Source of the DNA: Escherichia coli
GTDB lineage: Bacteria; Pseudomonadota; Gammaproteobacteria; Enterobacterales; Enterobacteriaceae
DNA length: 64,000 bases
Reading direction: 5' to 3' (one strand)
Assembly: GCF_003790525.1 (NCBI RefSeq)
Contig: NZ_CP033635.1
The notes beneath the pieces are model-generated. The model was not told the DNA's origin, made no database searches, and was given only the letters and a program-made list of their open reading frames with translations. Below, one piece after another: positions 18,844-21,155 of this stretch (positions are counted from its first letter, which is position 1; each line of letters starts with the position of its first letter). Position numbers and translations under genes: made by a program.

Positions 18844-21155
18844 GTGCATATGTTTAAGCCCAGGATTTGCAGCTGGATAGGTTTACTTCCCCTGTTTATG
18901 CTGAGTCTTCCAGTACAGGCGGACCTTCGATGTGTTGCAAATGCAGTTGATATTGAACCATTTTTTTCTGCGGCTACCGCTGAAGATAAACAACAAGTTG
19001 AACAAGCTATCAACAGTAGCGTGAATCTTGTCCCCTTCGGTTTATCTGCATCGGACTGGAAAGTGCATCGTGGCGATTTAGTGGTAGACGGTAATATAGA
19101 GAGTAATCAAAAATTGATTGTTCTTGGCAATTTGACAGTCAAAGGTAATATTTCCACTTTCTCTCTTTCTAATCCATGGGTTATTCTCGGTGATGTGACG
19201 GCAACGAATATAGTTACGGATTCACCACTGTTAATTACCGGTTCGATAAATGCAAGTGGACTGGTATTTATCGACTCATATTACGATAATCCGTCTACGA
19301 TTAAGGGGAGTATTAATGCGCGTGGGATATTTATCAATGACATAATTGCACCTGTTGTTGCGTCTTCGACAAATAGTGAATTCATGGTCCGTACGAGTGA
19401 CAAAAATGACACTGAAAATGTCAAAAAAGCGCTGATGATAATAAATCCTGATGCATATTATTGGGATCTAATAAATGATGAAGATGCTCTGAAAGAAATT
19501 TTTAAGCGAAGCAATATTCGCATGGCAGGGAATGTCTGTAATCTGATGAAAAAGAAGCGCTGTTTCGCCCTAAGCCTTCTCCTGAGTTAGTGCAGGAATT
19601 GCAAATGCTGGATGAAGGCAACGTTGCTGCATTTGAAGGACGAGATATTGCGACATTTGATCTTGCCATAATGCGAACTCTCCCAAGGCTTAAAGGAATT
19701 TCAGCTAACCTACGCAAACAACTTATTAATAGCAATGATGGACAAACGATTGAAAGTATGGCGAGATATATGCCTGACAATGAGATTCTGGAGTTGACCG
19801 ATCAGCAATTGGGTTACCAGCCTGTTGTTCTGGGGTTGCTCGACCGTGAACCGCTCTCTGTCGAAATAATGACGCGAATGAGTCATCTACCTGATGGTGT
19901 CGGTCCGTTGAATCTTGCGCTACGTGAAAATCTCCCTCTGGATATCGTCATGACTCTGGCGAAAAGAGATTGGGATATGATCATTCAGGAGCTTTATAAA
20001 GATGCGTGGTTATTGCCCGAATCCATTATTGATGGCTATATCCGCAGTAATGATCCCACAATTCGTCAGGTCGGTGCTGGAGGACAACTCACCTACAATC
20101 AGGCAATGCAGTTGGCGAACGATTCATCAAACGATGTTGTCACAAGCTTAGCGTCAAAGCTGGCAGAGATGAAACACCATGGTCAATTGTTGCGGATGAC
20201 GCCACAAGAGAGTGACAAAATAGCAGTATATTTATACCAAAAATTCGAGAATGACGATGATCTAATAGGTGCGTTATTTTTAGCGTTGCCAGATAACTTA
20301 CAGTTTAATTTTGTTAAAAGGATGGAGAAAAAATCCCCTGCCTACTTTTGCTGTCGGGATATGCAGGTAATTCACTCTGACGCTGCTTTACAACGGTTAT
20401 TGACACGTTTCAACGATCCTGAGGGGTGGAGTAATCTGGCGAAAAATCAGTATCTGAGTACGGCGATGAAACAAAAAATTTGGCACCGCGCTTTATCGCA
20501 TCGAAAAAATAATCCGAAAGCAGATTCTGCAGCATATGAAACCAGCGCTGATATGATTTTGTCGGAGCTTATCAGCTACGGTGAAGTTGATGACCAGATG
20601 CTATTAAATGCCGCCTCTCTGATACGTTCGGAAGGCTGGGACTTTTTAGAGAGTGCATTAGTTAGTTGGGATAATTTACCCGCTGTTGTCCTCAAGGAAT
20701 TACAGCAAAATATGCCACGCAATGATATTTGGGCGAAGTTTTTTCTGAGGCAGGAAAACAGCTCTCGTGCGCAGGTTAACGAAGCGTTACGTGTTTATTA
20801 TGCACTTGACCCCGATGCTTTAGCACAACTGGATAAACTGGCAAAACAACCGGATCGTATATGGTGGAGTACGCTGGCGAAAAGCAATCTTACATTTTTC
20901 AAGTTCGGCGCACTTAACAATCGCCATACACCGTCTGCGGCACTGGCGGCAGAAATTGATCCCGAGTGGTGGATTGTGGCGATGAATAATCCCCGTTTTC
21001 CAGTTGATGTATTAAAGGCGAGGCTGAAACGTGATCCTTTGCTGGCGTTAGAGCTTGTTAAACCTGAACTGGATTTAGTCCGCCAGCTGGCGCTTAACGG
21101 TAAGACACGCGCAATACGGGAACAAGCGATGAGAAAACTTGATGAGTTGCATTGA
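18844..21155 (+). pseudogene. ydbD: ydbD homologue split into two ORFs (248 and 521 codons) by a frame change
   Basis: Track ORFs 18844..19590 and 19590..21155 are in different frames and both are open across 19542..19590; combined length about equals the 768 aa I recall for K-12 YdbD. Confidence 0.6.

Follow-up and report, generated by a model that had tools for sequence, protein, structure and literature searches.

The ydbD gene in this stretch of Escherichia coli DNA (the window, 64,000 nucleotides in length) is divided into two open reading frames (ORFs) by the absence of one adenine from a run that has six in the orthologues. We think that the consensus of the complete genome probably under-calls this homopolymer by one base, and that the gene would be intact in the organism. 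The run of five is a specific one-base difference from the orthologues and no chance pattern; it reflects a mistake in the assembly or else a mutation of very recent date, private to this sequence, in a gene that is dispensable. The features on which the analysis turns are the following:

18850..21155, plus strand: the whole of ydbD, broken by a 1-bp frame change (99.9% identity to SMS-3-5 ydbD; synteny pdxI-ydbD-ynbA)
18850..19590, plus strand: 5' ORF, with native residues 1-235 (including A182T), then KRCFALSLLLS, 11 residues read out of frame, up to a TAG stop (ORF calls, protein alignment)
19590..21155, plus strand: 3' ORF of 521 aa, with native residues 248-768 including DUF2773; the first codon, GTG, is V248 (ORF calls, alignment)
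19549..19553, plus strand: A5 homopolymer; A6 in the orthologues, whose intact gene encodes K234 and K235 there (alignment)
19542..19587, plus strand: both frames open; a -1 shift anywhere inside would give the full-length product (stop positions)
19393, plus strand: missense SNP G>A, YdbD A182T, common to the draft assembly GCA_003686615.1 only (alignment, 35-mer search, contig comparison)
19551..19554, plus strand: A_AAG, read as AAA AAG in the zero frame (sequence; motif properties from PMC5009743)

The interrupted gene is the orthologue of b1407 and lies between pdxI and ynbA, in the same order as in SMS-3-5. When positions 18800..21200 of the window were compared by megablast with 5,426 complete E. 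coli genomes, E. coli SMS-3-5 was the best match (99.9%, 2,402 versus 2,401 bases). The SMS-3-5 orthologue is an intact coding sequence of 2,307 nt and 768 aa (WP_000476127.1), named 'DUF2773 domain-containing bactofilin' by RefSeq, and its product shares 94% protein identity with YdbD of K-12. DUF2773 (PF10971) is the sole strong Pfam domain and sits at the C terminus (residues 688-767 of the intact SMS-3-5 protein, E=3.7e-43). The Bactofilin match (PF04519; residues 78-141 of the intact protein) is weak, with E=0.12, and a search of YdbD with the NCBIfam models matched no family. The N terminus, encoded at 18850..18925, resembles a signal peptide by eye (MFKPRICSWIGLLPLFMLSLPVQA/D), although the RefSeq name is that of a bactofilin. 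Among the 15 literature matches listed for ydbD, most concerned Bacillus genes that share the name, and searches of the literature for the SRA and WGS accessions gave no match. Upstream of pdxI, a large autotransporter gene contains staggered self-matches at approximately 12094..12444, with around 85-87% identity and offsets that are multiples of about 21 nt, which suggests an array of ~21-nt repeats.

The original prediction held that both ORFs are open across 19542..19590, and this proved exact. The downstream frame is open from 19542, following a TAA at 19539..19541, and the upstream frame ends at the TAG at 19588..19590. Counted from a GTG, the 5' ORF (18844..19590) has 248 aa, and it has 246 aa from the ATG at 18850, which is equivalent to the RefSeq start; it keeps the signal-peptide-like N terminus (by eye) and the weak bactofilin-like region. 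The 3' ORF is 100% identical to the matching part of SMS-3-5 YdbD. The sequence CTGATGAAAAAGAAGCGC occurs once in the window, at 19543..19560. Six adenines had been expected in K-12 in place of the five found here; alignment shows A6 in K-12 MG1655 b1407 and also in SMS-3-5, in the same run and the same codons. One added A was likewise predicted to fuse the two ORFs into approximately 768 codons, and the fused reading is indeed the intact 768-aa YdbD. The intact SMS-3-5 protein reads ...NLMKKEALFRPKPSPELVQELQML..., with Q replacing the L that precedes M in K-12, and the reading across the junction of the intact protein is ...MKKEALFRPKPSPELVQELQML.... In the window, this 768-codon ORF is broken at codon 236.

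We compared the whole window with SMS-3-5 and with the nearest assemblies. Positions 32032..64000 are 100% identical to SMS-3-5, and positions 1..32632 show four differences, namely three missense SNPs and the missing A. These SNPs, at 7232 (ldhA D239N), 19393 (ydbD A182T) and 29409 (hrpA L882R), are the sole substitutions in 64 kb. Elsewhere in the window, an IS4 insertion (its transposase at 47252..48580) interrupts ydcO (46867..49515, minus strand) exactly as in SMS-3-5; ydcO is a genuine pseudogene and annotated as such. No match was found among the 5,426 complete genomes for 35-mers with each of the three SNP alleles. The draft GCA_003686615.1 has all three: exact protein accessions place the variants of LdhA and HrpA in it, and its DNA directly shows the alleles of ydbD and hrpA as well. 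Exact-sequence look-up returned the LdhA D239N and HrpA L882R proteins under accessions from this draft (RLY...) and from a second genome, whose 5.54-Mb contig implies that it is complete (AYW...; AYW30415.1 and AYW30426.1). Full-length YdbD A182T was returned as RLY45269.1 only, from one contig, which implies that the complete genome with the AYW... accessions is without a YdbD protein and is the probable source of the window.

Sister contigs were gathered through the HrpA L882R protein that they encode. The contig of the draft (L082; RDDW01000009.1) aligned with window positions 16766..40667 over 23,903 nt with no mismatches and a single gap, which is the focal A; in it the run is A6, ydbD is intact with 768 aa, and A182T is present. 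L081 (GCA_034460245.1) and L083 (from Logan ERR1681564, on a contig found in six samples) are without A182T; both encode the intact 768-aa YdbD with A6, and they differ from the window at two and four SNPs, respectively. The comparison with close genomes of the lineage, which the original prediction had proposed as a check, thus gave A6 in L081, L082, L083 and SMS-3-5 alike, and the lesion is not common to close relatives. Judged from these alignments, GCA_003686615.1 appears to be the same strain or clone as the window, and the apparent order of changes is hrpA L882R, then ydbD A182T, then loss of one A. Because A6 is found in this draft and in the sister assemblies, A5 maps as a singleton to the branch that ends in the window.

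To count alleles more widely, we used 34-mers and 35-mers that match only if the allele is present, with A6 queries as positive controls, as identity alone cannot separate a gap from a SNP in a 61-mer query. Among complete genomes, the A6 35-mer had 3,608 exact matches with the K-12-type flank and 303 with the SMS-type flank, versus two and zero matches, respectively, for the A5 34-mers. When the flank base was left as N, metagenome contigs gave 70 matches to the A6 31-mer and none to the A5 30-mer. A5 is therefore present in 2 of the approximately 3,913 complete genomes that carry the site (about 3,911 have A6), and in no metagenome contig versus 70 with A6. In agreement with the original prediction, K-12 and some 3,900 complete genomes have an intact gene and not the two-ORF layout.

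Among complete genomes, A5 is carried by NZ_CP025851.1 (strain 510016) and by NZ_CP028703.1 (ME8067, a K-12 lab strain), and in both PGAP annotates ydbD as a 'frameshifted' pseudogene. Both have the same A6>A5 change in the same run as the window, but their flank is the K-12-type CAGATG, whereas that of the window is CTGATG. The unlike flank and the unrelated backgrounds indicate that these A5 calls are independent events or independent errors. Compared with MG1655, NZ_CP028703.1 (L010) has three G:C>A:T transitions and the same A deletion in 4.4 kb; the WP accessions of its pdxI, ynbA and ynbB products are consecutive and close to those of the other new proteins of the strain, which looks chemically mutagenised. 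A5 was also found in two Logan assemblies of SMS-3-5-type sequence, L005 and L007, both of which seem susceptible to errors in homopolymers. L005 is free of SNPs but shows three single-A deletions in 5.9 kb, and its A6 run at window positions 19423..19428 is shortened too; L007 is otherwise identical to SMS-3-5, on a contig with T runs at both ends. The A6>A5 changes fall at positions 2496 and 2615 of L005 (A deletions), 582 of L007 and 2501-2534 of L009 and L010, the two complete genomes.

Loss of ydbD is frequent. At least 80% of the ydbD region is covered in 3,834 of the 5,426 complete genomes and the gene is absent or partial in around 30%; it is clearly dispensable and often lost. One Logan contig (L006, SRR19561160) starts with TATCAAGAACTTGTTCGCACCTTCC (positions 1-25), fused to ydbD at the TTAG that corresponds to window positions 19586..19589. 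We tentatively take this leading sequence to be an IS5-family-like terminus, in which case it would be an independent IS disruption approximately 35 bp from the A run. Exact look-up showed that truncated products of 246, 248 and 521 aa are absent from the protein collection; a 516-aa truncated form is present, and comes from noisy Logan contigs and one IS-disrupted allele.

We favour a consensus error as the source of A5. A lone homopolymer indel with zero SNPs relative to an assembly of the same clone, and with close relatives intact, is the usual signature of such an error in a long-read-based assembly. The same A6>A5 call in L005 and L007, together with their other homopolymer trouble, supports this reading, as does A6 being the state in 3,608 and 303 complete genomes with the two flanks. 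The difference would then have arisen in sequencing or assembly and not in the cell, and ydbD in the organism would most likely be intact and encode the usual 768-aa protein, with its signal-peptide-like N terminus, bactofilin-like region and C-terminal DUF2773. The main rival, which we regard as possible although on the whole doubtful, is that a genuine and very recent 1-bp replication-slippage deletion in A6 pseudogenised ydbD in one isolate or stock. The window contains 296 homopolymer runs of at least 5 bases (76 of at least 6), and the other 295 (75 of at least 6) all match SMS-3-5; this speaks against a general homopolymer problem in the assembly and, with no other indel relative to SMS-3-5 in 64 kb, for a real deletion. 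Such a deletion would also be unremarkable in a gene that is dispensable and so often absent or partial in complete genomes. Further points in its favour are the putative IS disruption in one Logan sample, the 'frameshifted' ydbD that NZ_CP025851.1 and the mutagenised-looking NZ_CP028703.1 have annotated at this run, the position of the run at a known -1 shift-prone motif, and the aggregate suppression of single-base deletions in published test cases (PMC10861913). However, the otherwise identical draft and all of the sister assemblies have A6, 23.9 kb with a single indel and not one SNP point to a consensus error more than to a real change, and the metagenome contigs that matched A6 70 times did not yield the A5 allele. 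If the deletion is real, the ORF is interrupted relative to intact orthologues, as in a pseudogene, and the product would have 246 aa, without the C-terminal 533 residues and with DUF2773 lost. A small share of full-length protein might still be made by non-programmed -1 slippage at A_AAG. Reinitiation could yield a cytoplasmic C-terminal fragment, from GTG 19590, which shares bases with the stop codon of the 5' ORF (TAGTG), or from ATG 19605; an AGGA at 19594..19597, 7 nt upstream of this ATG, marks a possible reinitiation site for a C-terminal fragment of 516/521 aa.

Explanations in which the two-ORF layout has a function fared worse. Programmed -1 ribosomal frameshifting or transcriptional slippage, by which full-length YdbD would be made through regulated slippage, draws support from the zero-frame AAA AAG, which contains A_AAG and at which a -1 slip restores the exact wild-type sequence. 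We consider it highly improbable. The layout is not conserved, as the in-frame A6 is found in the approximately 3,911 complete genomes, in K-12, in SMS-3-5 and in the nearest relatives; this lack of conservation effectively refutes the proposal. Moreover, the heptamer is G_AAA_AAG and not X_XXY_YYZ, and a shuffle test of 19555..19625 for a stimulatory 3' RNA structure found none, with a fold no better than those of shuffled sequences (z = -1.04; 30 of 200 shuffles folded at least as well). A run of five adenines is also shorter than the A/T runs known to support appreciable slippage by RNA polymerase. Phase variation, in which high-frequency switching between A5 and A6 would turn ydbD off and on, is similarly far-fetched in our estimation. 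In its favour, A5 was called independently in at least three backgrounds, but of about 3,913 complete genomes only 2 have it, no metagenome contig has it versus 70 with A6, and further homopolymer defects mark the assemblies behind two of the A5 calls. Tracts of six are shorter than typical phase-variable homopolymers, which together with the allele frequencies led us to reject phase variation.

A further reading presupposes that the deletion is real and that non-programmed -1 slippage keeps up a low level of wild-type YdbD, making this a leaky, down-tuned allele and the A6 run a recurrent hot spot; we think it improbable. A_AAG is the minimal motif prone to -1 shifts in E. coli (PMC5009743), and in the test cases of PMC10861913 non-programmed suppression of single-base deletions in aggregate reached 1-10%. 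Another Z_ZZN motif, U_UUC, is present at 19563..19566. In the case of a real deletion, a -1 slip at A_AAG would lead into GAA GCG CTG... and yield the exact wild-type LMKKEALFR. The original prediction had offered a pseudogenising 1-bp deletion, a homopolymer error and, as less likely, slippage-dependent expression; with A5 private to the window among its close relatives and with slippage unsupported, the choice narrows to the first two.

The observation is accurate but ordinary, and its biological weight is minor: A5 is probably an artefact, and if it is not, ydbD is a pseudogene that is young and trivial. The annotation of this sequence should mark ydbD as frameshifted or suspect and should not enter it as two genes. 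The A6 run is also useful as a quality check, because several independent public assemblies under-call it or carry a mutation in it.

Two more known systems provide a comparison. As at dnaX-type sites (A_AAA_AAG), the zero frame of the window reads AAA AAG, the single tRNA-Lys decodes both codons and a -1 shift enters the productive frame; unlike those sites, the heptamer of the window starts with G, is followed by no significant 3' structure and belongs to a layout that is not conserved. The site is therefore no member of the dnaX-type class of -1 frameshifts. The homopolymer errors of long-read and flow-based sequencing are the other comparison. The window differs from these in that no other run is affected in 64 kb, and it shares with them a single-base homopolymer deletion accompanied by no SNPs relative to an independent assembly of what appears to be the same clone.
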